Part shown: piece after piece, positions 5,482 through 43,620 of the stretch
How the letters are laid out: each line of letters starts with the position of its first letter
Position numbering within the stretch: the first letter of the stretch is position 1
DNA from: Candidatus Levyibacteriota bacterium
GTDB lineage: Bacteria > Patescibacteriota > Microgenomatia > Levybacterales > UBA12049
Assembly: GCA_052034235.1 (NCBI GenBank)
Contig: JBPOIT010000005.1
Location: 113,698-177,697 of the forward strand
Reading direction: 5' to 3'
Length of the DNA: 64,000 bases
Position numbers and translations under genes: made by a program
The notes under the pieces: model-generated
What the model was told of the DNA's origin: nothing
The model's database searches: none
What the model saw: only the letters and a program-made list of their open reading frames with translations

Positions 5482-6651
5482 TTGCTAATGAGTACATCCA
5501 AAAGGACATTTTCGTTCGAACAACTATTGGAGGCACTAAAACGCGAGGTTTATTTTCCAAATTACACAATTAAAGGTTATATCTTCAGATATACCTCCGC
5601 GCTGCTTATTACCTCATCCCTCTTTCTTCTCAGCGTGCTCTTTAAATCTGAATCCCTGTCATCACTACTCCTCGTGCTCGCAATCGTTTCAACGGCTTGG
5701 ATCGGAGGACTTGGTTCTGCACTTTTTTCTGCTTTGTTATCCATTGGCTTTCTGTATGTTTTGTTCTTTTTTCCTATAAATCCATCAATAACCTTTTTTC
5801 TTGAATCAATAATTTTACTCATGACAGCAACGATTGCCGGTATGAGTATTTTCTATTCCAAAAAAATTGACCAGCTAGCAAGATTTCATCTAAAAGAAAA
5901 AGAATTTGAAAAAACTGTTGCCGCAATGCAGGAAGAAAATCTTAAACTTAAAACAGAAATCAGATCTCGTGATGAATTTCTCTCAATTGCATCACACGAA
6001 TTAAAAACTCCTTTGACAGCAACACTTCTCAAACTGCAAATTGCACTGCATAATATCCGTAATACATCACTTGCTAATTTTTCAGTCCAAAACTTAATGG
6101 ACATGCTTTTGAGCTCTGAACAACAAACACAAAGGCTTTCTAAAATGATTGGTGATTTATTAAACGTTTCTCTCATGAGAACAGGCCGGATGGAACTTGA
6201 TATTGAAAAAGCAGACCTCACTATCATTACAAAAGATGTGATAGAAGGATTGATTGAAAAAGCGACACGCGAAGATATCGATATTCGGCTCAATTCAAAT
6301 GGTGAAGTGAGCGGCAAATTTGACAAAATGCGCATCGAACAAGTACTTATCAATCTTTTAACAAACGCTATGAAATACGGCGGTAAAAAGCCAATTGATG
6401 TGAAAGTTGAACAAGAAAATAATATCGGAAAAGTAAGCGTGACTGATTATGGAATTGGTATACCAGCCAAACAAAAAGAAAAAATATTTGAACTTTTTGA
6501 ACGCGGCGTGCACGACGGACAAAGAAATGGTTTAGGAGTTGGATTATATATAACGAACCAAATAGTGAAAGCCCACAAAGGCAAATTGCATTTGGACAGC
6601 AAAGAAGGAAAAGGCTCTACGTTTTGTTTGGAACTGCCTCTAAACTCATAA
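5482..6651 (+). CDS. sensor histidine kinase (membrane, HisKA + HATPase_c)
   Basis: N-terminal TM segments. H-box SIASHELKTPLTA. N/G boxes: NLLTNAMKYGG, VTDYGIGIPAKQKEKIFELFERG, GLGVGLYITNQIV. No response regulator adjacent, so it looks like an orphan kinase. Confidence 0.85.
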   Translation: MLMSTSKRTFSFEQLLEALKREVYFPNYTIKGYIFRYTSALLITSSLFLLSVLFKSESLSSLLLVLAIVSTAWIGGLGSALFSALLSIGFLYVLFFFPINPSITFFLESIILLMTATIAGMSIFYSKKIDQLARFHLKEKEFEKTVAAMQEENLKLKTEIRSRDEFLSIASHELKTPLTATLLKLQIALHNIRNTSLANFSVQNLMDMLLSSEQQTQRLSKMIGDLLNVSLMRTGRMELDIEKADLTIITKDVIEGLIEKATREDIDIRLNSNGEVSGKFDKMRIEQVLINLLTNAMKYGGKKPIDVKVEQENNIGKVSVTDYGIGIPAKQKEKIFELFERGVHDGQRNGLGVGLYITNQIVKAHKGKLHLDSKEGKGSTFCLELPLNS

Positions 6652-24595: not shown

Positions 24596-25594
24596 ATGAT
24601 TAAGTTGAAAAGACAATCCAAAATGCACAACAAGAACTATTTTTTGCGAGGAAATCAATTTTCTTTTTCCCATCTCTCTTCTTTCCGCATATTTATGGGA
24701 TTTCTCCTAACCATCGTTTTCTCATTTGTAACACCTCTTCCCGCACTTACCATCACCCAAAATGCAGTTGATGCAACTTCAGAAGCTGAAGTGCAATTTT
24801 TCACACCTTCACTCTTCCCTACACCAACTTCAACAAACCAATCAACCCTGCCGCTTGACCCGTTAGAACTGCTTCACCAAACACCAACACCAGCGGCTAC
24901 GAAGTCTACTGAGGAGCCTGCGGCTGATTATTGTATGGAAGTACCTGTTTTGATGTATCATCACATCCAACCCCTTCAGGTAGCTTCACTGCTTGGACAC
25001 GCACCTCTTACCGTTGATAGTACCATTTTTGAAAACCAAATGATTTATCTCAACGATCATGGTTACACGGCACTTTCTGCTGATGATTTAGTAAATGCAC
25101 TTAAACACAAACAACAACTTCCCGAAAAACCTGTCATGATTACCATAGACGACGGTTATGACGATAATTACACCTACGCCTATATGACAGCAAAGAAACA
25201 GCACATGATTATGAATTTTATGATTCCGACACAACTGATCGGCAAACCAGGCTATATGAATTGGGATCACTTAAGAGAAATGCACGAAAATGAATATGCA
25301 AGGATATACAATCATACGGCAACACATGCTCCGCTTGGATATATTCTAAAAAATCAAATCCATCAAGAACTTGCCACTTCAAAAGATGATTTTAAAAGAG
25401 AGTTAAACTATATGACCGACATTTTCACCTATCCATATGGTTCATATACCCCTATCGCAATTGACGTTCTGAAAGAAGACGACTTTAATGCTGCATTTAC
25501 AACAGAAGACGGGCAAACCCATTGTCTTTCAAATATAATGCAGCTCCCAAGAAAACGAATAGGCAATGCCCCAATGAGCAGTTACGGCTACTAA
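24596..25594 (+). CDS. polysaccharide deacetylase (NodB/CE4 family), membrane-anchored or secreted
   Basis: MITIDDGYDD (TFDDG motif 1), HTATH (motif 2), N-terminal hydrophobic segment. Confidence 0.7.
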   Translation: MIKLKRQSKMHNKNYFLRGNQFSFSHLSSFRIFMGFLLTIVFSFVTPLPALTITQNAVDATSEAEVQFFTPSLFPTPTSTNQSTLPLDPLELLHQTPTPAATKSTEEPAADYCMEVPVLMYHHIQPLQVASLLGHAPLTVDSTIFENQMIYLNDHGYTALSADDLVNALKHKQQLPEKPVMITIDDGYDDNYTYAYMTAKKQHMIMNFMIPTQLIGKPGYMNWDHLREMHENEYARIYNHTATHAPLGYILKNQIHQELATSKDDFKRELNYMTDIFTYPYGSYTPIAIDVLKEDDFNAAFTTEDGQTHCLSNIMQLPRKRIGNAPMSSYGY

Positions 25595-26844
25595 GTGTGA
25601 AATGCTAAGTCTTTGACTCCTCCAAAGGCGATTCTGTCTAAAATAAGATCATCCATATCCATCATGATTCCCGGTACGACAGTGAATTCTCCGTATTTAT
25701 CGTTTAATTTATCAGCAGCATCTGCAACTTTTCTGGCTTTGTGAAAGTCTTCCTCAAAAAGATGCATTTGACGGGAATCAAAAGGTGAAAGTCGATAACA
25801 AGAAATGCCAATTTGGGAAACTTTTTTATATTCAGGCTGCATGCTAAAAATAATTTTGGCGTGATCATACAGTTCTTTGGTTGTATACATATCTCGCTCC
25901 ATCAGCCGCCCTCTGTGCCAGCCTGTATGATCTTTGTAGCCAAACCACATATGGATTCCCCTTGCAGTAAAACCTTTGTTTCTGAGTCTTCTGCCCATTT
26001 TTTCGCACAATTTCATGATGAGCCGTGATAGTTCAGTATGATCATCTGTTGCAAATTTGATGGCATATTGCTGACCGATAGATTTAATTCCAAAATCCTT
26101 TTGATCAGCTTCAAATCCTCGCAATTTATCAAACCATCTTCCGCCGATAACGCTTCTAAAAATTTGTTTTTCAAGTTTTTCGCGTGTTGCCTTAAAAAAA
26201 TCTAATGGGGTATAAATACCATTCATATTAAGTCTTAATTGGTAACGAACGTTTATGCCGCAAAAATCTAAGAGTTCTGCCTTTTGATACGTATCTAAAA
26301 GATTGGTGTGATCTATGTAAGTTAACCCGTCCGGTTTATGCAGTGACGCTCCCAGTTTTGCAAGAAACATATTGGTTCCGATGCCAATGCTGCAAAAAAT
26401 CCATTCTCCTATTTCCTGTTTCATCCGCTCCTTAATTTCCTTGGCAACACTAATTAAATCCGTATGCAGATTGGCAACGGGATGAAAATCGATAATTGCC
26501 TCATCAATTGATTTTGGAGTTACATCTGGTGAATAATCCATGAAGATTTTTTTAAATTTCTGATGAACGTCACGATACAAAGAAGGATCAGGTGTTCTCA
26601 CTACGATATTTGGATAAATCATCAGAGCATCACTCACACGCATCCCCATCTTTATACCAATCCGTTTGGCTTCAATTGACGGTGCGAGAATAAATGCATT
26701 AGGAGTACCATATGCAGCAACGACAATTGGTTTGCCTCGAAGAAGTGGATTGACCTGCTGCTCAATAGTGGCAAAACAAGAATTCAAATCAATATGCATC
26801 AGCAGAGGTTTGTGACGATTTAGTAATGAGGCATTCATAATCAA
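25591..26844 (-). CDS. Y-family DNA polymerase (DinB/UmuC-like), catalytic residues present
   Basis: MHIDLNSCFATIEQ (first catalytic Asp present) and SIDEAIIDF (Asp-Glu pair). Overlaps the upstream small gene by 4 nt, suggesting translational coupling. Confidence 0.8.
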   Translation of the reverse strand: MIMNASLLNRHKPLLMHIDLNSCFATIEQQVNPLLRGKPIVVAAYGTPNAFILAPSIEAKRIGIKMGMRVSDALMIYPNIVVRTPDPSLYRDVHQKFKKIFMDYSPDVTPKSIDEAIIDFHPVANLHTDLISVAKEIKERMKQEIGEWIFCSIGIGTNMFLAKLGASLHKPDGLTYIDHTNLLDTYQKAELLDFCGINVRYQLRLNMNGIYTPLDFFKATREKLEKQIFRSVIGGRWFDKLRGFEADQKDFGIKSIGQQYAIKFATDDHTELSRLIMKLCEKMGRRLRNKGFTARGIHMWFGYKDHTGWHRGRLMERDMYTTKELYDHAKIIFSMQPEYKKVSQIGISCYRLSPFDSRQMHLFEEDFHKARKVADAADKLNDKYGEFTVVPGIMMDMDDLILDRIAFGGVKDLAFHT

Positions 26845-27182
26845 TTTCCATCCGATATCTCTTCAAGTATCCAATGTAGTGTATCTGGGTCGTGGCGGAG
26901 ACGAAAATTTAAGGTACCTGTGCAAACATGAAAGATATGAAAGACTGTACGCCCCTCACGAACTTTGTGATGAAACCCGACTTTCTTCGTGAGATAATCC
27001 CGACCGTTCCATCTAATTTTATATGGAGTGACTTCCCCTCCAAGCTTTCTGTAGATTGTAATAACATCGACTTTTTCATTAATTTTTTGGTTCATACAGA
27101 GCAACTTTCCTCTGCGGCAGTACGTTTTTAATCGCTTGAGACCTAAGATATGAGAAGCTAGATCTATGAGAGGCAGCGTCAC
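26841..27182 (-). CDS. 113-aa accessory protein co-transcribed with the Y-family polymerase (possible YolD/UmuD-functional analogue)
   Basis: Position and 4-nt overlap mimic the umuD-umuC and yolD-uvrX arrangement. No S24 peptidase motif, only weak YolD-like resemblance (YKIRWNGRDYLT). Confidence 0.35.
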   Translation of the reverse strand: MTLPLIDLASHILGLKRLKTYCRRGKLLCMNQKINEKVDVITIYRKLGGEVTPYKIRWNGRDYLTKKVGFHHKVREGRTVFHIFHVCTGTLNFRLRHDPDTLHWILEEISDGN

Positions 27183-27213
27183 GGTCTAACTCCCCCTATT
27201 TCAGGACTCAAAT

Positions 27214-27831
27214 TTAGTGGTATTTACGTATCACACTTATCACCACTCCCCCTATTTCCAAACTTTGTTTTGGGCGGATAATAGGGTAATGCTTGTTTGC
27301 AGGAACAAGCTCTACTTCTCCGTTGCGTTTGAAATAATATTTAACAGTCCATTCGTTATCAACGATAGCGGCAACGATATCTCCATTGATCGGCGATCTG
27401 TTAGGATCAACGATAATTTTATCTCCCTCACCAATGAGCGCATCAACCATAGAATCACCAGAAACTGTGAGGAAATAAATTTCTCCCTGCACATCATAGA
27501 GATAACGAAAAAGATCGATATTATCATGATGAGCTTCAAATGCAGGCATTGGATAACCTGCTTTAATTGTCCCCAAATGGGGAATCGCAAAAAGATTCTT
27601 GGGGAGGAGTTTACCCTTGTCCCCTTTCTCCAAAAATCCTGCTTCAACAAGTTTGTTGACGATTTTAAAACTGGCATTTTTCGAAGCAACTCCAAACAAG
27701 GTATTCATCTCTTCATAGGTAGGAAGACGTTTTTCAAGTCTATAGAAGTTTCGAATTTTTTTAATAGCAAAGTCTAAAGTCATCGTCATAGTGGTGAACA
27801 AATGTTTACTAAAATTAGTATAAGTGAACAC
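27214..27831 (-). CDS. lexA: LexA repressor (S24 peptidase, wHTH)
   Basis: C-terminal VSGDSM (Ser) and WTVKYY (Lys) dyad. N-terminal wHTH. The likely true start is MTLDF/MTMTLDF (27784 or 27790), because the 5' end of the listed ORF covers the operator boxes. Confidence 0.85.
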   Translation of the reverse strand: MFTYTNFSKHLFTTMTMTLDFAIKKIRNFYRLEKRLPTYEEMNTLFGVASKNASFKIVNKLVEAGFLEKGDKGKLLPKNLFAIPHLGTIKAGYPMPAFEAHHDNIDLFRYLYDVQGEIYFLTVSGDSMVDALIGEGDKIIVDPNRSPINGDIVAAIVDNEWTVKYYFKRNGEVELVPANKHYPIIRPKQSLEIGGVVISVIRKYH

Positions 27832-27839
27832 CTGTTCAC
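27794..27839 (-). promoter_or_regulatory. two LexA (Cheo-like) boxes GTGAAC-N4-GTT(T/C)AC
   Basis: GTGAACAAATGTTTAC (27794..27809) and the perfect palindrome GTGAACACCTGTTCAC (27824..27839) sit immediately upstream of the probable lexA start. Core GAAC-N4-GTTC as in Gram-positive SOS boxes. Confidence 0.65.
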
Positions 27840-27897
27840 TGTCAAGTACCTGAGGTTTATTCTTACAACTTTTTTACATTTATATGGGGAACGCTCT

Positions 27898-28719
27898 TTA
27901 AACGTACTCTTCGCTACAGATGGCTTCTACTTCGGCGATGACTCTGTCTCGTTCTTCTTGAGTTAATGCGAGCATGTCCAGAACTGTTTTATCCCGCTGA
28001 ATATCCTTGCAGAGGACGACGTGATTTTGCAGGAGTGTAGCTTTTTGAGATTGACTGAGGTTGTGAATTACGGTGATCGGATGCAATCTGGCAGTTTCAA
28101 TTAAATCCCGAAGGCTTCCTCCACTCTCTGGATAACTCCAACTTATCACTTTCATACCCATGCATTCAGCATAAGTAATTGCATCAATTGTCGCTTTGGT
28201 ATTGGTCACAAGCCAAACATCCTGAAAATTCTGATTCGTTTGGACATCTTCAAATCTCGCAAACGTATAGAGTGCAACTTGTACTTCAGAGCGAGTTCCT
28301 GAACTATTATGAAATTTGAGCTCAATCATTGATGCTTTACCTTCTTTTTTGGCTATGACATCAACCTCATGCGAAACACACCTGCCGCGAAGGATTTGAC
28401 GAACTTGTGTTGTATAGCCATGTGCTTCAAGAATTCTTGCCACGAAATCTTCGAAGGGATAACCTGTCGGACCGAGCATCATAATTGATTCCTTCAGGCT
28501 ATAACGGGCGCGGACAAACGGTTGTGAAGAGTTACCTAGAAATTCCAGAATATGCCTATATATTTCCTCCGTTGAGATACCTTCATATAATTTTGACTTT
28601 ACATGTGCGAGGACTTCGTCGTGAAGTGAATTTGGAATCCGTGCTCTACGGATTGAATTCATAACTTTCTGCTCGTTGAATGCTTCTTTTTCACCTGTTG
28701 CCTTAATAACAGTAGTCAT
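27898..28719 (-). CDS. ATP-cone domain fused to PD-(D/E)xK (Mrr_cat-like) restriction-endonuclease-fold domain
   Basis: N-terminal TTVIKATGEKEAFNEQKVMNSIRRA (ATP-cone). Central HEVDVIAKKEGKASMIELK (D...ELK nuclease motif). Confidence 0.6.
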   Translation of the reverse strand: MTTVIKATGEKEAFNEQKVMNSIRRARIPNSLHDEVLAHVKSKLYEGISTEEIYRHILEFLGNSSQPFVRARYSLKESIMMLGPTGYPFEDFVARILEAHGYTTQVRQILRGRCVSHEVDVIAKKEGKASMIELKFHNSSGTRSEVQVALYTFARFEDVQTNQNFQDVWLVTNTKATIDAITYAECMGMKVISWSYPESGGSLRDLIETARLHPITVIHNLSQSQKATLLQNHVVLCKDIQRDKTVLDMLALTQEERDRVIAEVEAICSEEYV

Positions 28720-35163: not shown

Positions 35164-35261
35164 ATGATTATTATAGCAGTCCTTTCAATAGATATAAATG
35201 ACATTTATCACAAAGTCATTTTTTGTGTTTTGCAGCCCAGTTTGTTAAAATGGCAATACTC

Positions 35262-35334
35262 GCACCTGTAGCTCAGCGGATAGAGCACTTGGCTTCGAAC
35301 CAAGGGGTCGGGGGTTCGAATCCCTCCAGGTGTA
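35262..35334 (+). tRNA. tRNA-Arg (anticodon TCG)
   Basis: Acceptor GCACCTG / CAGGTGT, D-arm GCTC..GAGC, anticodon stem CTTGG / CCAAG with loop CTTCGAA (TCG), T-arm GGGGG-TTCGAAT-CCCTC, discriminator A. Confidence 0.85.
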
Positions 35335-35490
35335 CTATGCTCAAATCTACTCTTGTCATCTCAAGAAGCTAGAATTAGCATTGGGAAACAGGGACGATCA
35401 TATTAACTTTTTTCCGCCTGCAAGACGACTTTGCACTCCATGATTTTATCAGACTGAATCAATATTCACTAACCCCCGTCGAATCTGTCG

Positions 35491-36987
35491 TTGACAATCT
35501 TCAATAATATACTATATGATCTCGTTTTGTGTTGTCATAATATGACAACGTATATCTATATAGTGCAAGACATATTGTTTTTTTCACGCTTTTACTATAA
35601 TTTTATGACTAATAATTTAGAAATAAGTGCTTCAGCAGGTAAACAAATTTCGGGTACTTCTACTGGGAAACCAGGAGAAGTAATTCATCATAACCCAAAT
35701 TTGCTCCCAATAACTCAACGTATTCCTCAAATTGTCGCTGACGATGGATTGACTCCCCCACGAAGAGTCACTTATCAATACAATGATCTGTGTAATCTCG
35801 CTTGTGCTGGATGTTATGTTAGTGATTCGCTAAAAAAAGGCGGTAGAGTTTATGCAGAAAATAAAAAGAAAATAGTCTCCCCCGATCAATTTGAAGGTCA
35901 CCTGGATGCTTTAGGTCCAGGTATGGAGTCTTTTTACATGCTCGGAACTGAGGCAACAGTCACGCCGGACCAGTCGAGAAGGACTATGCAAACTGCTCGA
36001 GATCGTGGATTAGTGATATCAGCAGTCACAAATGCTGCCACTTTTCCTAGAAATTTTGATAGAACATTTAGTGTATTTGGACCTGAAGGACTCAGTAAAT
36101 TAGTTATTAGTGTCGATTCAGTTGACCCTGAAATTCATGACAAAATGAGAGGTAAAAAGGGTGCTCTAGCTGCTACTTTGGAGAATCTGGATAGATATGT
36201 TGGTGAAGGATATCAAATCAAAGCGCAAACAACAATTTTTGCCAGAAATTATGGTACAGTTCTCGAAACAGTGGAAACGTTATATGAAGAGCATGGCGTA
36301 AGGCGATTCGGATTTCATTGTGCATCACTTGAGGGTGTATCTGATGCAAAGCAAAAAGGTGTTGAACATGTAGATCCTTTAGCGTGGCGTGCTCTTTTTG
36401 ATCAATTAAACCAGTTTAAAGAAAGCCATACCAATCTTTCTGATCCTTCACAAAATATTACTGAAATTAATCTACCGTACATATATTTAACAGGACAGGA
36501 ATTGGAGACATACATCGGAGATCCTCAGCTTACAGATGAATATTTAGCACATCTTACAGAAGTCGAACGTGGTGTTGAAAAACCAATGCCATTTATTGCC
36601 TGTCCAAAAATCGCAACTGATGATCCATATATTTATGGTAATGATGGACCAAATGGTGTTGGTAGACTCGCACAATGTTGTATTCTTGCTGGCGGACATG
36701 AGAACATGCATCATGCCCAATATGACCCAGCTCAAAGAATATTTGTTGTAAATACTGATCCACAGACATCAGAGTTACACAAAATGAAAACATCTTCCTA
36801 TCTTTGTCCTGCGATGGACACAGCAACAGGAGGGCAAAAATCAGATAGAGTGATAACAGAAATCGGTGATTTATTCCATGTTTGCAGGTTTACGAGCAAT
36901 AATACATTACCCTATGCAGTCAATTCTGAAGTCGATTATGCAACACATTATGAAAGGTTTAGGATGCAATATAAGCTTGCCTCTTAA
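35491..36987 (+). CDS. radical SAM enzyme with large Cys-containing C-terminal extension
   Basis: CNLACAGCY (Cx3Cx2C). GTEATV (GGEP-like). ISVDSVDPEIHDKMRGKKGALAATLENL matches the MoaA/PqqE/AlbA-type rSAM core. The ~200-aa C-terminal region carries five additional Cys. The likely true start is ATG 35604 (MTNNLEISAS), because the first 38 codons of the listed ORF cover the operator and promoter. Confidence 0.75.
   Translation: MTIFNNILYDLVLCCHNMTTYIYIVQDILFFSRFYYNFMTNNLEISASAGKQISGTSTGKPGEVIHHNPNLLPITQRIPQIVADDGLTPPRRVTYQYNDLCNLACAGCYVSDSLKKGGRVYAENKKKIVSPDQFEGHLDALGPGMESFYMLGTEATVTPDQSRRTMQTARDRGLVISAVTNAATFPRNFDRTFSVFGPEGLSKLVISVDSVDPEIHDKMRGKKGALAATLENLDRYVGEGYQIKAQTTIFARNYGTVLETVETLYEEHGVRRFGFHCASLEGVSDAKQKGVEHVDPLAWRALFDQLNQFKESHTNLSDPSQNITEINLPYIYLTGQELETYIGDPQLTDEYLAHLTEVERGVEKPMPFIACPKIATDDPYIYGNDGPNGVGRLAQCCILAGGHENMHHAQYDPAQRIFVVNTDPQTSELHKMKTSSYLCPAMDTATGGQKSDRVITEIGDLFHVCRFTSNNTLPYAVNSEVDYATHYERFRMQYKLAS
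35531..35549. promoter_or_regulatory. operator-like perfect palindrome GTTGTCATA-A-TATGACAAC (GTTGTC-N7-GACAAC)
   Basis: 19-nt perfect inverted repeat about 55 nt upstream of the rSAM start codon. A partial half-site TTGACAA lies about 25 nt further upstream. Confidence 0.55.
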
Positions 36988-37028
36988 ACCAAGATTAAGC
37001 ACTCATTATAAAGAAGCCTTTAGATTTA

Positions 37029-38066
37029 CTATTGTTGAAACACTCCGCGCATGAATACGGGGTCAGCTTTCAGAGAACTTACATCTGTGCTCAATGCATA
37101 CACCGTCTGTTCTGGAACTCGATTAGATAATGTCGGCTCAAAAGGAGGCATGCTGCTTAATTTCCCATCAACAAACCTTCCTAGCCTTTCAGTATTAAGA
37201 TCGAGCGGATTGGTTGCTCTTGCTTTACATTTCATTTCTTCTTTATGATCTTCAAAAGGAAAACCATAAGTTCCCAGAATTAATGCAGAATCGAACGGTA
37301 ACTCGATAACATCATGCAGCGGAGATCCTATTTTTAAATCCGGATAGTTTACAGAAAAATAAGTAGCCATTCGTGCAATTTGTGTCGGTGATTGTTCAGG
37401 CCACAGTTGTCTTGCCTGGTTATCGGTATACCCCATAGCAACAACTCCTGCACCTAACTGACGAGCAGCCTGTGCGAGTGATTCTTCCATACCTATTTTA
37501 CATGATGAACAAAAACCAGGGTATCCTAATTGTTGCTCATCCGCTCTGGCAGGTTCTATTATAAATCCTTTATTTCTGGGTGAGAGATCCATATAATAAT
37601 GATCAGTTTCTGGATCAAATGTCTCTGATTGAAGTACGTTAGCAATTTTTCTCGCTTGTCTACGAGGAGCCTCAAGTTCATCACTAAAACCTGGTAAAGC
37701 GGTAACTAAATATGCTTTTCTGTCTGGCTGATCCCTGAAGAGATCAAGCGTTAAGGCAGCTATCGATGATGAATCTCTTCCTCCCGAAAAAGGAATCAAA
37801 ACTGCAGAAGTTTGTCCGTAAAATAATCCTAGCCGATCTAATGAACGTCTCTGTAAATCTCTGGCTCGTGCCGCCAATGCATCAGGGGATTGGACTAACG
37901 ATAGTGTGGCATCAACAATATCCTGTGGTAAATTTTTTGCTCTTATCTCATCTGCGTACGAGGGACTGCCTAGATGGGTTATTGTCCTGTTTAATTCAGT
38001 ATAACCTGTGTTTCTAACCAGAGAGCTATCTACTCCTTGAGATAATGGTATAAATTGTTCTGTCAT
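37029..38066 (-). CDS. asparagine-synthetase-like PP-loop ATP pyrophosphatase (adenylating domain only, no glutaminase domain)
   Basis: RRSLDRLGLFYGQTSAVLIPFSGGRDSSSIAAL (SGGxDS PP-loop) followed by TALPGFSDELEAPRRQARKIANVL, which parallels the AsnB segment SGGLDSS...VGLPGSPDLKAAQEVANHL. 345 aa. Confidence 0.7.
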   Translation of the reverse strand: MTEQFIPLSQGVDSSLVRNTGYTELNRTITHLGSPSYADEIRAKNLPQDIVDATLSLVQSPDALAARARDLQRRSLDRLGLFYGQTSAVLIPFSGGRDSSSIAALTLDLFRDQPDRKAYLVTALPGFSDELEAPRRQARKIANVLQSETFDPETDHYYMDLSPRNKGFIIEPARADEQQLGYPGFCSSCKIGMEESLAQAARQLGAGVVAMGYTDNQARQLWPEQSPTQIARMATYFSVNYPDLKIGSPLHDVIELPFDSALILGTYGFPFEDHKEEMKCKARATNPLDLNTERLGRFVDGKLSSMPPFEPTLSNRVPEQTVYALSTDVSSLKADPVFMRGVFQQ

Positions 38067-38069
38067 TAT

Positions 38070-38092
38070 ATGTTGTCGTTAAATGACAACAT
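38070..38092. promoter_or_regulatory. operator-like inverted repeat ATGTTGTC-N7-GACAACAT (GTTGTC-N7-GACAAC)
   Basis: Lies 4..26 nt upstream of the PP-loop gene start (minus strand). It has the same half-sites and 7-nt AT-rich spacer as the site at 35531..35549. Confidence 0.55.
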
Positions 38093-38129
38093 GGATTATA
38101 GCATATATATATATGCGCTATATGGAGTA

Positions 38130-38849
38130 TTATTGTAGTGCTAGGGAGTAGATTTTGTAACCGTCGTCTAGGAGGACGGTTAGGCAGTCTCCAACTTTCG
38201 TGGTTGTGGCATTGGGAACTCCTTGGAATAAGAATGATGAAATGAGAATGCCTTGGCCGCTTTTATCGCCTGTGAAACTGATATGCCATGATGAATCATT
38301 TTTTTCAACAAGTTTGCCGTAAATTTGTTTGATTTTACCTGAGGATTTGGTGATTGATGATGGCGGGAGATAGACTGTCGCTCCAACCACAAATGGACCA
38401 ACACCATTAAGCTGCATTAATTCATTTACACGTGTTTCATCTTTTAATTCGTCCCGAGCGATACTTTGGAGTGAATCATTTGGTTTGAGTACATAAGGTT
38501 TGAGATATTCCCATTTTTGTGCAAAGCCAGTTTTGCTGCAAACACTGTCAGTTGTCGTACTACTACTGAATGCAGGCCCAATCGGTGCGATTGTAGGCGC
38601 TGTAGCTGTTTCCGTTTGTTCCGCAACCGCAATCGGCTCAGGAGTTGTAATTGAATCCTGAACGTTAGCGATTTGATTGGTTTGAGCATTTAATACTTTT
38701 GCCTGGGATTCAGTTTGTTTTGTTACACTTTCTTTCCCAAACCCATACCCAACAAACCCAGTGAAAATTATAGAAAAAACCCACAGAAATCCGATGAGTA
38801 ATTTTAAATTTGCAGAAGCCTGCGAAGAAGAATCAACACTTTCGTTCAT
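38130..38849 (-). CDS. membrane-anchored LysM-domain protein
   Basis: N-terminal TM. YVLKPNDSLQSIARDELKDETRVNELMQLNG matches the LysM pattern (Y.V..GD.L..IA.......ELA..N). Confidence 0.55.
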   Translation of the reverse strand: MNESVDSSSQASANLKLLIGFLWVFSIIFTGFVGYGFGKESVTKQTESQAKVLNAQTNQIANVQDSITTPEPIAVAEQTETATAPTIAPIGPAFSSSTTTDSVCSKTGFAQKWEYLKPYVLKPNDSLQSIARDELKDETRVNELMQLNGVGPFVVGATVYLPPSSITKSSGKIKQIYGKLVEKNDSSWHISFTGDKSGQGILISSFLFQGVPNATTTKVGDCLTVLLDDGYKIYSLALQ

Positions 38850-38961
38850 AGTTTACAGTATTACGCGAAGTCAAAAAAATGTCAATGGATGATCAAAAAA
38901 CGGAATCTGGAGCAAAATACTCTTAATACATATTTGAGGAGGAGACTATTACTTGAATTTA

Positions 38962-39441
38962 CTAATTATTAGAACGTTCCTCTCTTCTTCTTTGTCTATC
39001 TAATTTTCTTTTTTCATCCGCTGCTTTTCTTTGTCGAATTCTTTCATCCCTATCTTCATTATAATCTGGTGGTCCGTCCTGTAAATCTCGTAATCTTCGT
39101 TCCTGCTGTCTTTGTTGAAGTCCGCCGTCTCCGCATTCAGCACCCATTGTTGTTAGACTTATTGCTACAAGTGCTCCAGCCCTTACCTTTTTACTACCTA
39201 AAACTCGTGAACCCAGTTCTACAAGAGTTCCACCTACGCTTTTTTCGCTCGTATCAGCTACTTTTGTAACTTTTACTAATTTTGCTTCCAATCGTTGTTG
39301 AGCTGTTAAAATACCGACATTGTTACGAACGCCAGCTTTCTCTGCTGGGGTTAACCCAAATGTTACTCCCCCTTCAGGAATTTGTTGGGCAATGCTTGCT
39401 ACAACTTCAGGATTAATGGTTGGTCCAGGTCTTTCTAACAT
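38962..39441 (-). CDS. hypothetical protein with highly charged Arg/Glu/Asp C-terminal tail
   Basis: 159-aa ORF ending RLRDLQDGPPDYNEDRDERIRQRKAADEKRKLDRQRRREERSNN. No recognised domain. Confidence 0.4.
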   Translation of the reverse strand: MLERPGPTINPEVVASIAQQIPEGGVTFGLTPAEKAGVRNNVGILTAQQRLEAKLVKVTKVADTSEKSVGGTLVELGSRVLGSKKVRAGALVAISLTTMGAECGDGGLQQRQQERRLRDLQDGPPDYNEDRDERIRQRKAADEKRKLDRQRRREERSNN

Positions 39442-39543
39442 ATGTTTATGATTTGGATTCTACTCTTGACATATCACGTTGTCAATAGGTACTGAATATG
39501 TGCGGATATCACTTGCCATTTAAACCTATAGCATATATAATCG

Positions 39544-41610
39544 TTGTTTATTATGACACGAGGACCGGAACAACCACGAATTGTGAAAAAAGGTCAGGAT
39601 AAACGACGACGACGTAGAAACCTCAGACTACCTGCTGTTGCTATGGCAACACTCCTTGCAGGAAGCGGATGCACTATCAGCGGGATTGAAAAAGATGAAA
39701 TACAGGCCAAACCTGGTATCGCGTCTCCATCCAGTCATACGTTGCAAGACTGTTTTACGGGAAATGCACCAGTTGAAGAAGTTGATTATTGTGTCGCATT
39801 CACAGCCATAGATACTGCTCGAAACGCAACAGGCCAAGTTGAAAAAGCTTTTAAAACTTCACAAATTGCCATAAACGAAATAAGTACTCCCGAAATTAAA
39901 AAACGAGCAGCTGATACACTTGTTTTTGCACAAGGAGGAAAAGCTATACGAATGGCTATTCACGATGAAGATTATAAAGGTGCAGAAAAATTAGCAGATG
40001 GTATAGAATCATCTGAAATACGTTCATCAGCTAAAAATATTATTGATGAAGTAGAAGTTCTCCTCGCAGCAAATGATATGAAAGATGGGGTTTTAGATAA
40101 AGAGGAAGAAAAAATCCTCTATGAAATTGAAGATCAGGCGCTTTTACTCAAAGTTGTTGGTTATCTCACTTCTATCGTAGAAAGAAATTATAATTTTGCG
40201 ACATATTATATAACTGATGCTGAAAAGAACAAAACAAACGCTGCAATCGATGCAACGTATCAGGAATTTGAAGACACGGTTCGAAGCGATTTGGCGTTAT
40301 GGAATACTGTTGAATATAAGGTAGAGACGGAAGAGGAAGGTTATTCATTATATAATGAGTGGAGCCGAAGAAGACTCAACAGAACAGGCCCGGATGCAAA
40401 ACCAGAATTTCCATTGCAGGAAAAAACGCAGCTAACCGATAGTGAGCAAATTGTACAACAGTTTGCAGGGTTTGTAACCACTATGAAGGGAATATTTCAT
40501 GATCCTTCAGATAGTACTGACAATGTTGATGTTACTTTTTGGAGAACCCTTGATGTCCTTGCTTCAAAACCTGATCTATTAAATTCACATTTTTTTGTTA
40601 CTGCAACGACTTCTGAAAATGAGAAAACAGGCACACTAGAAGCTTGGGAATATACCTATACACTGAACATACAGCCAATAACAGAAGAAACACGTCAGAA
40701 TCCAGACATTCAAGTTACAATAAAACAAAAACCATCTGGTCCAGAAGCTCTCAGTGCTAAGGCATTCATAGATTCACATGGACACTTTCATTCAGCACAA
40801 ACCAAAGGAGCAATTACACAACAGCAAGCAAGGGATGCATTGTCGATCATTGATACTACTGTTCCCAATATCACGACCAACTCAACGAATACAGCGGAGG
40901 TACTTTCTGGAGGGACTGATTATCCATATGAAGCAAACCTCAGAAGAGTAACCATAGGCAGTGATGGAGAAATAAATGTCTCATTCGGCAATGAAGGTCC
41001 ATTCTCTGCCGAATCTGAGATAATACCACCAGGCAATGGCCCGAATATAACTTCTCCAGAATGTTTTGATATTTTTACGGCTATTGATGCGATAGAAGGT
41101 TCTGAGTATGATCTTGCAGTTACTTTAGAAATTGCTGATAGATTATTACCTGGTAATGAAGAACCCTTAAAAACGACAGCTCATAAGGCAATTGATGCAA
41201 CGCTAGCAAGCACAGCAACGGTAAATCTAGACGAGGGCGATATAAGTGCCTTGGAAGCAGAGCAATTGATTGCATCTATGTATGGATCTAAAGATTCAGC
41301 CTCTGCAGCACTTGATATAAAAATTGCGGAAATAGCCATGAATAATTTATCTGAACATAACTTAGCTTATGCGTTGCATGTCACTGAACTTATAAAAAAT
41401 AAAAAACTACGCACGGAGGTTGCGAAAAAAATAAGCGATGCAAAGAAAGTACTTACAAGCCGTAACCCTGATAAAATAGAAAAGGCCGAACAATCATGGA
41501 AACAAATTGCAGCGAATTATGGTAATCGCGCAGACAGCGCTCGCACAGATATTACTTCTACTGCCGCTGATTCCAATAAAAAATTGGATCTCATTTGCGC
41601 TGGGAGTTAA
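39544..41610 (+). CDS. large hypothetical lipoprotein (688 aa)
   Basis: The probable true start is ATG 39553 (MTRGPEQPRIV). Lipobox LLAGSGC. No recognisable enzymatic motif. Confidence 0.5.
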   Translation: MFIMTRGPEQPRIVKKGQDKRRRRRNLRLPAVAMATLLAGSGCTISGIEKDEIQAKPGIASPSSHTLQDCFTGNAPVEEVDYCVAFTAIDTARNATGQVEKAFKTSQIAINEISTPEIKKRAADTLVFAQGGKAIRMAIHDEDYKGAEKLADGIESSEIRSSAKNIIDEVEVLLAANDMKDGVLDKEEEKILYEIEDQALLLKVVGYLTSIVERNYNFATYYITDAEKNKTNAAIDATYQEFEDTVRSDLALWNTVEYKVETEEEGYSLYNEWSRRRLNRTGPDAKPEFPLQEKTQLTDSEQIVQQFAGFVTTMKGIFHDPSDSTDNVDVTFWRTLDVLASKPDLLNSHFFVTATTSENEKTGTLEAWEYTYTLNIQPITEETRQNPDIQVTIKQKPSGPEALSAKAFIDSHGHFHSAQTKGAITQQQARDALSIIDTTVPNITTNSTNTAEVLSGGTDYPYEANLRRVTIGSDGEINVSFGNEGPFSAESEIIPPGNGPNITSPECFDIFTAIDAIEGSEYDLAVTLEIADRLLPGNEEPLKTTAHKAIDATLASTATVNLDEGDISALEAEQLIASMYGSKDSASAALDIKIAEIAMNNLSEHNLAYALHVTELIKNKKLRTEVAKKISDAKKVLTSRNPDKIEKAEQSWKQIAANYGNRADSARTDITSTAADSNKKLDLICAGS

Positions 41611-42289
41611 AAAGAAACGGGTTGAAGTTGGTTTTGTGATCGTAGTGGTCTTCGTGTTCTACTTTTTTAAGTTTATTTACCACATAATATGTTACAGGTG
41701 TGAAGAGCACTTCCATGGCAACTTTGAAAATGTAATTTGAAATTACGAGTGAAATAAGGACTTCAGTTGGCAAGAGTCCCCAGAAAGCAATGGCGATAAA
41801 GATGACCGTATCAAGCAGCTGCCCGATGAGCGTTGAACCGATTGTTCGTGACCAAAGATATTTCCCTTTGGTTGTAATTTTGAGTTTGGCAAGCAAAAAC
41901 GAATTGATAAATTCACCAGCGAAATATGCAACAATACTTGCAAGTACTATTCGTGGAGCAAGGCCGAGAATGGTGTTGTAAGCTTCTTGGTTTGGCCAAT
42001 CTGGTGATGGCGGCAGCATACCAACAACAATGATGATTCCAGCCATGAGCAGATTACATAACAATCCGATCCAAATTACCCGCCTTGCACGTGCATAACC
42101 ATATACTTCTGTTAAGATATCTCCAAAAATATAGGTGAGTGGAAATAAAATCGTGCCAGCATCAAGTGTGAGAAAGCCAAACGAGGTGAGTTTGGTGGAT
42201 GTGATGTTTGAAATAAGCAGAACCGCCACAAACAAAGCAGTTATGATATCAACATAGCGAAAGGTATGTACTTGTTTTTTCTCCGACAT
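41591..42289 (-). CDS. yhhQ: queuosine-precursor transporter, YhhQ/DUF165 family
   Basis: FPLTYIFGDILTEVYGY closely matches the YhhQ signature (FPLSYLIGDVLTEVYGY). Six TM helices. Confidence 0.8.
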   Translation of the reverse strand: MSEKKQVHTFRYVDIITALFVAVLLISNITSTKLTSFGFLTLDAGTILFPLTYIFGDILTEVYGYARARRVIWIGLLCNLLMAGIIIVVGMLPPSPDWPNQEAYNTILGLAPRIVLASIVAYFAGEFINSFLLAKLKITTKGKYLWSRTIGSTLIGQLLDTVIFIAIAFWGLLPTEVLISLVISNYIFKVAMEVLFTPVTYYVVNKLKKVEHEDHYDHKTNFNPFLFNSQRK

Positions 42290-42324
42290 AGGCTCTTATT
42301 ATACACCAGTTAGGCACCTTTGAT

Positions 42325-43620
42325 GTGCTATACTTTCAAACATACATGAGCAGTTCACATTTTAAATTTAAAATACTAGGAAAAGACAAAAAATCAAAGG
42401 CCCGCTTGGGGCAACTGAAAACACCTCACGGGACGATAAACACACCTGCATTTGTGCCTGTCGGGACACTAGCGAGTGTCAAAGCTATTACACCGCAAGC
42501 ACTGACAGAACTTGGAACACAGATTGTGCTTTCAAACACCTATCATCTGCATTTGCGCCCAGGTGAGGATGTCATAGAAGAAATGGGAGGACTTGGGAAA
42601 TTTATGGGCTGGAATGGTCCGACAATGACAGATAGCGGCGGCTATCAAGTGTTTTCATTGGGAGTAGCTCAGCGCAAAGAAGTTGTGAGGGATATTACCG
42701 GCAAGAAAATAAACAAATTTACGAAATCTGTTTTTTTGAACCCTGCTGATAAAGTACCATTGTTATCAGCTGTCACTAAAACAACTGAAGATCGGCAAAA
42801 ACAAAAACTCAAAGGCGCACTCGTCAAAGATGATGGTGTGTGGTTTTTTTCTCATCTAAATGGTGACAAACAGTGGTTTGATTCTGAAATATCAATCAAA
42901 ATTCAGGAAAAGCTTGGAGCAGATTTGATTGTCGCGTTTGATGACCACGAATCCCCTCTCTGGGATCATGAAACGACAAAACTGTCACTTGAGAGAACCA
43001 GTCGCTGGGGCATTGCGAGTTTGCAGTATCATAAACGCAAAGACCAACTTATGTACGGTATTGTCCACGGCGGACGCTATGAAGATTTGCGGATATTTTC
43101 AGCTAAATTTACCAATAAATATTTTGATGCGGTTTCAATTGGCGGGTCTTATACCTCCAAGGAAGTTTTATTTCAAATGATTTCTTCATGTGTCCCCTAT
43201 TTTGATGAAGAAAAACCCAGACATCTTTTAGGAATTGGCGAAATAGAAGATGTTTTTGAAGCTGTTGCGAGAGGAATGGATTTTTTTGATTGTGTCGCAC
43301 CGACAAGAAGAGCGAGGCATGGCAGTCTTTTTGTCAGTCCAAAAAACGGCGGACGTAAAGAAAAAAGTTTTGTCTTTCATATCACCAATAAACAGTTTCA
43401 AAGAGATCCTAACCCAATTGATCCAGGCTGTGAATGTTTTGTCTGCCAAAATTACACCAGAGCCTACCTCCACCATCTTTTTGTCGGCGAAGAACTTTTA
43501 GCCTTTCAGCTGGCAACATATCACAATCTCTATTTCATCACCAAACTCATGGAAAAAGTCAGAAAATCTCTCGAAGACGGTAGCTTCCACTTACTCAAAG
43601 ATGCATGGCTTGAGCAATAA
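42325..43620 (+). CDS. tgt: queuine/preQ1 tRNA-guanine transglycosylase
   Basis: TPHGTINTPAFVPVGT, LSNTYHL, MTDSGGYQVFSL, and the Zn site CECFVCQNYTRAYLHHL (CxCxxC...H). About 50 aa longer than typical bacterial Tgt, with an insert near residues 130-190. Confidence 0.9.
   Translation: MLYFQTYMSSSHFKFKILGKDKKSKARLGQLKTPHGTINTPAFVPVGTLASVKAITPQALTELGTQIVLSNTYHLHLRPGEDVIEEMGGLGKFMGWNGPTMTDSGGYQVFSLGVAQRKEVVRDITGKKINKFTKSVFLNPADKVPLLSAVTKTTEDRQKQKLKGALVKDDGVWFFSHLNGDKQWFDSEISIKIQEKLGADLIVAFDDHESPLWDHETTKLSLERTSRWGIASLQYHKRKDQLMYGIVHGGRYEDLRIFSAKFTNKYFDAVSIGGSYTSKEVLFQMISSCVPYFDEEKPRHLLGIGEIEDVFEAVARGMDFFDCVAPTRRARHGSLFVSPKNGGRKEKSFVFHITNKQFQRDPNPIDPGCECFVCQNYTRAYLHHLFVGEELLAFQLATYHNLYFITKLMEKVRKSLEDGSFHLLKDAWLEQ

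Follow-up and report, generated by a model that had tools for sequence, protein, structure and literature searches.

Paired inverted repeats at the predicted promoters of a radical SAM gene and a PP-loop-type gene in a Levyibacteriota bacterium are candidate operators

The HAIR element of HspR (CTTGAGT-N7-ACTCAAG) and the HipB operator (TATCC-N8-GGATA) are repressor sites in promoters that are bound by dimers. Both have short arms, 7 to 8 non-conserved bases between the arms and half-site centres about 13 bp apart. The SOS box of LexA (Cheo-type) likewise consists of inverted half-sites at a fixed spacing that lie over or after the -10/+1 region of co-regulated promoters. In this study, we analyzed a 64-kb stretch of DNA (the window) from a Candidatus Levyibacteriota bacterium, in which two copies of the inverted repeat GTTGTC-N7-GACAAC precede a radical SAM (rSAM) gene and a gene of PP-loop type. 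The repeat resembles the sites above in its layout, whereas its half-sites are unrelated to those of HAIR and HipB and its targets are enzymes instead of chaperones or toxin-antitoxin genes; genes of HspR/MerR or Xre type were not seen in the vicinity of the sites. It is also unlike the SOS box, GAAC-N4-GTTC, in both geometry and sequence. The window has its own lexA gene (27214-27831, minus strand; TIGR00498, E = 1.2e-25, short of the family cut-off), and this gene displays a repressor-box layout, with the GAAC-N4-GTTC boxes GAACAGGTGTTC and AAACATTTGTTC placed around a TTGACA promoter. The region upstream of lexA has no GTTGTC-N7-GACAAC, and neither the rSAM nor the PP-loop promoter has a GAAC-N4-GTTC box. 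We rejected LexA as the regulator of the two genes because lexA carries boxes of its own kind.

Site 1, with the 19-nt core GTTGTC-ATAATAT-GACAAC (35531-35549, strandless), is a perfect 9-1-9 palindrome, GTTGTCATAATATGACAAC, and is followed, after 55 nt, by the rSAM ATG at 35605. Site 2, ATGTTGTC-GTTAAAT-GACAACAT (38070-38092, core 38072-38090, strandless), lies within the 63-nt gap between the stop codon of a gene for a 239-aa protein (38130) and the PP-loop ATG (38066, minus strand). Read on the minus strand, which is the coding strand here, it runs ATGTTGTC-ATTTAAC-GACAACAT, then ATA, then the ATG, so that the start codon follows 3 nt beyond the end of the site. The rSAM and PP-loop genes are convergent, 41 nt separate their 3' ends and nothing is encoded between them, as the first-pass annotation had described when it placed the sites at the 5' ends of both genes and noted that no regulator lies between. 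Exact matches to GTTGTC-N7-GACAAC number two in the 64-kb window, with 0 expected from 100 shuffles. Allowing up to 2 mismatches added no site in the window, and allowing up to 1 mismatch with spacers of 6 to 8 nt added none in the window plus 14 kb of flanks. The random scatter through coding regions that should have spoken against the motif was thus not seen in the window, its flanks or the related loci. Both sites are intergenic, and intergenic DNA makes up 9.5% of the window.

A consensus scan predicted a sigma-70-type promoter for the rSAM gene (35491-35520, plus strand, 11/12 matches), with a -35 element TTGACA (35491-35496), an 18-nt spacer and a -10 element TATGAT (35515-35520). Site 1 begins 10 nt past this predicted -10 element and would occupy about +4 to +22 of the transcript, whose start was inferred from the promoter. 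Upstream of the PP-loop gene we read the extended -10 element TGCTATAAT (38095-38103, minus strand), which we take as such from the TGnTATAAT consensus; the scan needs a -35 element and therefore did not list it. The core of site 2 begins 4 nt past this -10 element, which would put the predicted start site inside the first half-site. Both promoters are predicted from the consensus, and that of the rSAM gene is supported by its conservation in a diverged copy (below); overall, shuffled sequence had promoter-like matches as often as this region.

Coincidence had to be weighed carefully, since the first-pass annotation held that two independent occurrences strongly suggest control by one dimeric factor. 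We simulated 400 first-order Markov windows and searched them for perfect 6-Nk-6 palindromes (k = 3-11), leaving out low-complexity pairs. Some pair with the same half-sites and the same spacer length occurred in 71% of the simulated windows, and such a pair fell within 5 kb in 17%. The motif count in the window is a post hoc test, and single half-sites occur at background (19 and 14 observed, 12-15 expected). With an equivalent pair closer than 5 kb in 17% of simulated windows, the coincidence is by itself not strong evidence, and once this look-elsewhere effect is considered the earlier wording was too strong. Requiring both sites to lie in intergenic 5' regions multiplies the estimate by about 0.0095 (0.095 squared) and lowers it to about 0.0015.

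The second line of evidence comes from a diverged cassette (L001/L002) of rSAM, TudS-like and PP-loop genes, whose rSAM gene is 78% identical in amino acids and 83% in nucleotides to that of the window; the cassette thus exists in versions with and without the TudS-like gene. This copy keeps the -35 element TTGACAA, the 18-nt spacing, the -10 element TAT.AT, the 10-nt gap to the palindrome and 12/12 half-site bases, with CTTATTC as the palindrome spacer. Identity to the window is low in between (8/18 in the -35/-10 spacer, 2/10 in the 10-nt gap and 3/7 in the palindrome spacer) and upstream of the -35 element (37/89), so that neighbouring non-motif columns agree at about 40%. At this level, survival of 12/12 half-site bases has a probability of 0.4^12, or about 2e-5. 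Judged by this alignment, the half-sites are under selection. From the -10 element to the palindrome, the L001 rSAM promoter resembles the PP-loop promoter of the window (77.8% over 45 nt), and the promoters may therefore share ancestry; the near-random identity of the palindrome spacers, however, means that common descent alone cannot account for the preserved arms. The case for function is carried by promoter position and conservation, not by raw coincidence.

The three known copies (site 1, site 2 and that of L001/L002) have the same half-sites and a spacer that is always 7 nt long and free in sequence, the pattern expected for a dimer that reads two half-sites. We therefore favour, with a probability of roughly 0.6, the reading that both palindromes are promoter-overlapping operators for one dimeric repressor that co-regulates the rSAM and PP-loop genes. 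The repressor would be a single sequence-specific, probably homodimeric, DNA-binding protein encoded elsewhere in the genome. Each operator would overlap or directly follow the -10 element and the predicted start site, and from this position the bound protein would block polymerase binding, open-complex formation or promoter escape. Some signal would then switch the rSAM and PP-loop genes together, along with the second rSAM / TudS-like / PP-loop cassette. Several points count against operators, among them that just three sites are known and that no candidate regulator was found in about 78 kb (below). In the sense of the mRNA, R-TATA stands directly downstream of all three sites and has no symmetric counterpart on the other side, and a strand-specific flank is not expected of a symmetric dimer. 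The sites also vary in their distance from the -10 element, at 10 nt for the rSAM genes of the window and L001 and 4 nt for the PP-loop gene. Lastly, the GGTTGG-type leader hairpins that follow the -10 element in other Patescibacteria PP-loop/TudS operons look like RNA.

We looked for the regulator itself in the window plus 14 kb of flanks (about 78 kb) and found neither a transcription factor gene adjoining either site nor a candidate regulator. The DNA-binding or signalling genes seen in this stretch encode LexA, a WhiB-like protein, an ArsR-type protein and a histidine kinase; a comparison of about 45 more window proteins with Pfam and NCBIfam returned the WhiB-like protein, LexA and the histidine kinase alone. 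The ArsR-type gene is situated in the 7-kb left extension, inside an arsenic-type operon. Neighbouring gene products were considered and rejected as regulators: they are a membrane-anchored LysM-like protein (239 aa), a predicted lipoprotein (688 aa) and a charged protein of 159 aa whose sole family match, a VgrG-related one, is far below threshold.

We also searched for the motif beyond the locus. The motif was absent from all 19 loci with rSAM homologs in a scan of a genome collection. A metagenome scan for GTTGTC-N7-GACAAC-RTATA retrieved 86 stretches that vary in GC content and have neither an rSAM nor a PP-loop or TudS gene close by, a number that we judge to be about chance level and to say nothing either way. 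Literature searches on the motif and on Saccharibacteria regulons gave primer noise or nothing. Phylogenetic footprinting, which had been proposed as a check, was uninformative about the motif in distant homologs, where rSAM loci have no PP-loop gene and PP-loop loci have a different leader.

Several known classes of element were considered for the palindromes and rejected. Neither site appeared in the terminator scan or has a T tract, and both are at 5' ends; 2/6 pairs of the stems are G-C, and the next bases are GTATAT or ATATAA. A REP or miniature mobile element would not fit two copies in 64 kb plus flanks, both of them 5' and none in the 41-nt convergent gap. No Rfam family matched either palindrome (35200-39600, E ≤ 1), and all matches in this interval fell on the tRNA-Arg locus, namely the tRNA model and a Plastid-ycf2 match far below threshold on the opposite strand.

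The possibility that the palindrome acts as RNA is unlikely but deserves serious weight. It would then be an element at the extreme 5' end of both mRNAs, with a 6- to 8-bp stem and a 7-nt loop, recognized by a sequence-specific RNA-binding factor or affecting mRNA stability or translation. For hairpins of this size the three are stable, with folding energies from -7.6 to -8.8 kcal/mol and z from about -3 to -4.7; site 1 has -8.6 kcal/mol and site 2 has -8.8 kcal/mol (z = -4.4). In the predicted transcripts, each of the three sites is contained in the first ~25 nt, the R-TATA flank is downstream and strand-specific, and the site 2 hairpin stops 3 nt short of a start codon that has no Shine-Dalgarno sequence. 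Structure alone, however, gives no account of an identical stem at three diverged or unrelated promoters without compensatory change, and an identical stem at the promoters of different genes argues for sequence-specific recognition, not mere structure. The predicted start inside the first half-site of site 2 would truncate its hairpin, the 55 nt between site 1 and its start codon make a shared translational mechanism unlikely, and the sites show no terminator and no Rfam match. Such an element may derive from the 5' leader hairpin of other Patescibacteria PP-loop/TudS operons. In four homologous operons (L030, L033, L036 and L037), GGTTGG...CCAA(C) hairpins follow the promoter, with loops of about 8-14 nt and often T runs next to them, and their outer GUUG/CAAC pairs match the palindrome here, a likeness that rests on about 8 nt in four sequences. 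This leader hairpin (ATGGTTGG...CCAAC) starts with ATG(G)TTG, closes with CAAC, matches no Rfam family and occupies the same place as the palindrome, a few nt past the -10 element of the homologous gene. Variable loops, T runs and additional terminator-like hairpins in a long leader suggest RNA-level attenuation in those operons, whereas the leader here is about 22 nt and has no terminator, the spacer is always 7 nt and the element also precedes the rSAM gene. We consider it doubtful that Patescibacteria share a conserved 5' leader element which controls PP-loop/TudS-like operons for nucleotide thiolation or salvage, and that the palindrome is its form in this lineage, copied here onto a recruited rSAM gene. 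If this were true, the motif would mark a dedicated regulon for a new pathway in which a thio-modified nucleotide is made or recycled, with the rSAM protein, a YcfA-like adenylating enzyme and a desulfidase as its parts, under the control of a new factor or a nucleotide-sensing RNA. The shared dimeric transcription factor of the first-pass annotation is retained in part: a common trans-acting factor is the best explanation of the paired sites, but the observations do not tell a DNA-binding dimer from a factor that reads the same sequence as a 5'-terminal RNA hairpin, and no transcription factor was identified in the ~78 kb.

It is improbable that the sites have no dedicated function and are a coincidence or an undecayed leftover of promoter duplication. 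The simulated frequency of close pairs, the possible shared ancestry of the promoters and the chance-level, contextually unrelated metagenome matches could be read in this way; the position of both sites in 5' intergenic DNA and the half-sites kept intact in the diverged copy speak against it with the low probabilities given above. There is only a slight chance that an activator or a sigma-related factor, and not a repressor, binds the site. In its favour, the half-site tGACAAC is similar to the extended -35 element TTGACAA found locally, with half-sites that read ATGACAAC, ACGACAAC and TCGACAAC, and TTGACAA(T/A/C) is present in the promoters of the rSAM gene, L001 and the 159-aa gene. The position of the sites, at about -2 to +22, is nevertheless typical of repression and not of activation. 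An alternative promoter built from the half-sites was also rejected, as neither TTGTCA nor xTGACA taken as the -35 element has a -10 element at a workable 16-18 nt. Recombination or mobility sites around a mobile rSAM/PP-loop cassette are the least credible of these readings. The two sites do bracket exactly the two-gene cassette, which has versions with and without the TudS-like gene, and a tRNA-Arg gene, which in sister strains is a point of island insertion, lies 196 nt upstream of site 1: contigs L004-L006 part from the window at 35329, inside the 3' end of the tRNA, and L005 and L006 have a PLD-like gene there. Yet the strains break off at the tRNA, about 200 nt away from site 1, and none of them has lost either site. 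Each site is complementary to itself, unlike a single arm of a terminal inverted repeat; no gene for an integrase or transposase lies nearby, and the GC content is unremarkable. In two diverged copies the palindrome keeps its place relative to -35/-10, as fits a promoter element.

A repressor acting at these operators would control two enzymes from uncharacterised families. The 460-aa rSAM protein (35605-36987, plus strand) belongs to the radical SAM superfamily (PF04055, E = 8.7e-13, 49.2 bits against a cut-off of 29.5), with CxxxCxxC at C63/C67/C70 (CNLACAGC, residues 63-70) and more invariant cysteines in the C-terminal half. It is far under the cut-off of every NCBIfam subfamily, and its family was found in Actinomycetota, Ktedonobacter and two Saccharibacteria MAGs. 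PADLOC gave generic viperin-like matches alone, which leaves a defence role unsupported. The 345-aa product of the convergent gene (37029-38066, minus strand) resembles adenine nucleotide alpha-hydrolases and has an SGGRDS motif that is invariant in 8 homologs, as are C186, C189 and C280 (family alignment A4). Pfam detected no PP-loop domain in this protein, and its assignment to the PP-loop type is a putative one based on SGGRDS, weak LarE/NadE matches and a profile match to YcfA (E = 8.2e-5). Homologs were found solely in Patescibacteria-type contigs, in a nucleotide-salvage neighbourhood.

YcfA is the closest solved relative of this family by profile; the match is weak and covers part of the protein, over the nucleotide-binding domain. 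YcfA (PDB 9kq6) is a GTP-adenylating AANH/PP-loop-type enzyme of 6-thioguanine biosynthesis, which adenylates the free nucleotide GTP before sulfur insertion (PMC12494993). An enzyme that acts on a free nucleotide fits the nucleotide-salvage neighbourhood of the PP-loop homologs. The conserved partner of the PP-loop family is a TudS-like desulfidase gene, whereas that of YcfA is a YcfC-type lyase. The PP-loop family also differs from YcfA in its three invariant cysteines. Three such cysteines are also a feature of Fe-S-dependent thiolases. Whether the rSAM and PP-loop genes form a single module, as was first proposed, is answered in part: their adjacency and the palindrome recur together in the second diverged cassette, but in other Patescibacteria the PP-loop homologs pair with the TudS-like gene without an rSAM gene, and the PP-loop gene is missing from the neighbourhood of distant rSAM homologs.

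Repression through a palindrome that overlaps a promoter is textbook biology, and the worth of the sites described here is that of a lead, not of a surprise. To our knowledge, transcriptional regulation is almost unexplored in Patescibacteria, and we know of no regulator-motif pair assigned to these genes. A conserved operator predicts common regulation of the rSAM enzyme and the YcfA-like adenylating enzyme, to which the second cassette adds the TudS-like desulfidase. The motif may thus serve as a handle for finding the regulator and for helping to assign a function to two uncharacterised enzyme families.

The radical SAM (rSAM) gene and the convergent PP-loop gene are each preceded by a palindrome with the core GTTGTC-N7-GACAAC, and direct reading and a pattern search confirmed both sites as the first-pass annotation had given them. 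Site 1 (GTTGTCATAATATGACAAC, 35531-35549), upstream of the rSAM gene (35605-36987, plus strand), is a perfect 9-1-9 palindrome; site 2 (ATGTTGTC-GTTAAAT-GACAACAT, 38070-38092, core 38072-38090) lies before the PP-loop gene (38066-37029, minus strand). Nothing is encoded between the two genes, whose stops are 41 nt apart. An exact match to the pattern is found nowhere else in the 64-kb window, and allowing up to two mismatches added no site. With at most one mismatch and spacers of 6-8 nt, no further site was found in the window plus 14 kb of flanks, taken from a contig 99.8-99.99% identical to it.

A consensus scan placed an rSAM promoter on the plus strand (-35 TTGACA at 35491-35496, 18-nt spacer, -10 TATGAT at 35515-35520; 11/12 positions). 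Site 1 begins 10 nt downstream of this -10. Transcription is expected to start 6-8 nt downstream of a -10, and site 1 would span about +4 to +22 of the predicted transcript. On the minus strand the PP-loop gene is preceded by TGCTATAAT-CC-ATGTTGTC-ATTTAAC-GACAACAT-ATA-ATG, in which the core begins 4 nt after an extended -10 predicted by consensus (38103-38095) and the ATG lies 3 nt past the extended palindrome. This would place the transcription start within the first half-site of site 2 and give a leader of ~22 nt without a Shine-Dalgarno sequence. Both promoters were predicted from consensus, and the region has no more promoter-like matches than shuffles do; that of the rSAM gene is supported by its conservation in a diverged cassette (contigs L001/L002). 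Several nearby genes seem leaderless or very short-leadered, without Shine-Dalgarno sequences (38849-38890, 39513-39556): TTGACA-17-AATACT ends 7 nt 5' of the ATG of a 239-aa gene, and TTGCCA-17-TATAAT ends 11 nt 5' of that of a 688-aa gene (39553). A second, imperfect palindrome, TATAGC-gcatatatatatat-GCTATA, occupies 38099-38124, past the stop of the 239-aa gene and ahead of site 2. The TGCTATAAT -10 comes from its right arm, and the palindrome folds as a hairpin in read-through RNA.

The pattern was absent from all of 100 shuffled windows. Because this figure is valid only for a pattern picked afterwards, we searched 400 first-order Markov copies of the window for any pair of perfect 6-Nk-6 palindromes (k = 3-11, low-complexity arms excluded) sharing arm and spacer length. 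An equivalent pair occurred in 71% of simulated windows, and at most 5 kb apart in 17%. The window itself holds 202 such palindromes, 18 with k = 7, and the single half-site hexamers occur about as often as background predicts (19 and 14 observed versus 12-15 expected). Hence, the bare coincidence is weak evidence, and the earlier claim that two occurrences strongly suggest one factor overstated it (17% of simulations), but position and conservation add weight: both sites fall in the 9.5% of the window that is intergenic, at gene 5' ends and right after a -10, and are selectively conserved in the diverged copy.

In a protein search the rSAM protein had a single close relative, P0002 (78% identity), encoded on L001/L002, where the opposite strand carries a TudS-like (2-thiouracil-desulfidase-like, PF04463) gene and a PP-loop gene of which the 3' end is present. 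The coding nucleotide sequences there share 83-87% identity with the window. Ahead of the rSAM gene the conserved islands are the -35 (TTGACAA), the 18-nt distance, the -10 (TAT.AT), the 10-nt distance, (AT)GTTGTC-CTTATTC-GACAAC(AT), TATA and the start codon region. Identity is 37/89 upstream of the -35, 8/18 in the -35/-10 spacer, 2/10 between -10 and palindrome and 3/7 in the palindrome spacer, while the half-sites match at 12/12 positions. At ~40% background identity the chance of this is about 2e-5, which argues that half-sites and spacing are under selection and the spacer sequence is not. The two sequencing runs that yielded L001/L002 also gave contigs L134 and L135, which match window 37473-42849 at 100% identity and end at 37473. 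The last 30 nt of L001 (2223-2252) are identical to window 37227-37256, as happens where a de Bruijn unitig meets a branch of two co-existing sequences. The cassette proteins P0001, P0021 and P0002 and the 84% identical PP-loop protein P0028 are all listed with a longest contig of 250,158. Together these observations favour, or at least hint at, a second, paralogous cassette of the same genome rather than one from a co-occurring sister strain; in either case, L001/L002 is an independent diverged instance of the rSAM promoter.

The best available reading, to which we assign a probability of about 0.6, is that the palindromes are promoter-overlapping operators of one dimeric repressor, which when bound would keep RNA polymerase off the promoter or prevent its escape. 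It fits the identical half-sites, the constant 7-nt spacing with free spacer sequence, the place over or just after -10/+1, and the recurrence at two neighbouring promoters and in the diverged cassette. A palindromic operator over a promoter is a known kind of element, and the model foresees a fourth site upstream of P0028. Sites, shared spacing and conservation thus support in part the proposed single dimeric transcription factor, but no cognate regulator was found near them: the only regulators seen in ~78 kb were a WhiB-like protein, LexA, a histidine kinase and an ArsR-type gene, the last in its own operon, and the neighbours of 239, 159 and 688 aa are envelope or secreted-type proteins. 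The kinase is a single 389-aa ORF in the window (5482-6651) and is split into two gene calls (HisKA and a 70-aa HATPase_c) on near-identical contigs (L128 13004-13833); L128 differs from the window by one mismatch and one gap over the whole of the common stretch. A frameshift variant or assembly error in the kinase gene is a guess.

Several other readings were rejected. The AT-rich stems, 5' location and lack of a T tract do not fit an intrinsic terminator, the palindromes match no Rfam family, and a dispersed repeat is countered by just two exact copies in the window and none in the 14-kb flanks. Nor are they SOS boxes, since the window LexA (27214-27831, minus strand; TIGR00498, E 1.2e-25, below cut-off) instead carries GAACAGGTGTTC and AAACATTTGTTC around its own promoter. 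Two GAAC-N4-GTTC-type boxes flank the TTGACA promoter of lexA. Downstream of lexA, and on its strand, come a 113-aa gene and a Y-family polymerase gene (IMS); together they are an SOS mutagenesis cassette (25591-27900). That the palindromes bound a mobile cassette is unlikely: the sister-strain breakpoint (35329) lies inside the tRNA-Arg 3' end, ~200 nt from site 1, both sites occur in every strain, the surroundings lack a recombinase, and composition is uniform. Downstream of 35329, contigs from other samples match the window at >99.9% identity, and upstream of it the similarity is lost altogether. Beyond this break L005 (1-394) and L006 (1-842) carry a PLD-like (PLDc_2) gene and no tRNA, and L004 adds just 16 divergent nt, which suggests a strain-variable island at tRNA-Arg (35262-35335).

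A more serious, though still improbable, alternative is that the same sequence acts as RNA, with a 6-8-bp stem and 7-nt loop at the extreme mRNA 5' end (predicted folding, -7.6 to -8.8 kcal/mol). R-TATA follows all three sites in the mRNA sense with no symmetric upstream counterpart and is thus strand-specific, and PP-loop homologs elsewhere in Patescibacteria (39-49% identical) head operons with ATGGTTGG...CCAAC hairpins that share the outer GUUG/CAAC pairs. However, the stem is strictly kept with no compensatory change, spacer length is fixed, no terminator is present, transcription is predicted to start within site 2, and 55 nt separate site 1 from the rSAM start codon. Chance or inheritance, an activator or sigma-related role, and recombination sites jointly take up the remaining probability. 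In the other Patescibacteria lineages the leaders (L030 9745-10000; L033 9765-10000; L037 95-224; L036 860-990) have a TTGACA/-10 promoter, within a few nt a ATGGTTGG...CCAA(C) hairpin, and between it and the start codon one to three terminator-like hairpins with T runs. The loop length of the ATGGTTGG hairpin varies, which points to RNA-level action there. These leaders match no Rfam family and may be a new attenuator or riboswitch-like element of nucleotide-salvage operons.

The annotation of rSAM and PP-loop genes as a single module was borne out in part: both versions of the cassette have the two genes side by side and carry the shared element, but across Patescibacteria the PP-loop partner is a TudS-like gene without rSAM, and distant rSAM homologs (Actinomycetota, Ktedonobacter, two Saccharibacteria MAGs) lack a PP-loop neighbour. 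A TudS-like gene directly follows the PP-loop gene in five independent lineages (L030 10001-15900; L033 1-16000; L036; L037; L001 1576-2252) and is absent from the window's own cassette and the rest of the window. In two of the five the pair sits in a large nucleotide-salvage cluster without rSAM (ThyA, DHFR, SHMT, Tmk, Gmk, Maf, dNK, PRTase, GuaA, PNP, RNR). The 345-aa PP-loop protein matches no Pfam domain; its family has an invariant SGGRDS motif and three invariant cysteines, and its best solved relative in a profile search is YcfA (E 8.2e-5), which adenylates GTP in 6-thioguanine synthesis (PMC12494993). Given these features, a role in thio-nucleotide chemistry is a reasonable guess. PP-loop homologs occur only in Patescibacteria-type assemblies; the window has ~39% GC and a WhiB-like gene. 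Taken with the two Saccharibacteria MAGs among the rSAM hits, this points to a Patescibacteria genome, possibly one of Saccharibacteria. More distant PP-loop homologs (30% identical, P0034; L038-L041) are stand-alone genes in apparent defence islands with SIR2_2, RE_AlwI with methyltransferases, TIR_2 and AAA+/DUF6414, and no PADLOC model matches them.

The 460-aa rSAM protein (PF04055, E 8.7e-13) has CxxxCxxC at residues 63-70. In a Saccharibacteria MAG (L024 60-105) a perfect 17-9-17 inverted repeat, CATATTTACAATTATAT...ATATAATTGTAAATATG, precedes a 37% identical homolog. The repeat encloses a TTTACA-17-TATAAT promoter and has the start codon at its end, an arrangement suggesting that the palindrome controls a leaderless transcript. 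A Saccharibacteria homolog overlaps the end of an upstream HD_4 (RelA/SpoT-hydrolase-like) gene by 4 nt, and in Ktedonobacter a full, convergent RelA/SpoT gene lies ~1 kb downstream, past a 2-hydroxyacid dehydrogenase gene (L013 9264-11281; L023 12367-14274); the rSAM family may be linked to nucleotide alarmone metabolism. The PP-loop and TudS-like enzyme pair appears uncharacterised. The palindromes are of use as a handle on two uncharacterised enzyme families, and on how genes are regulated, in a poorly understood phylum.
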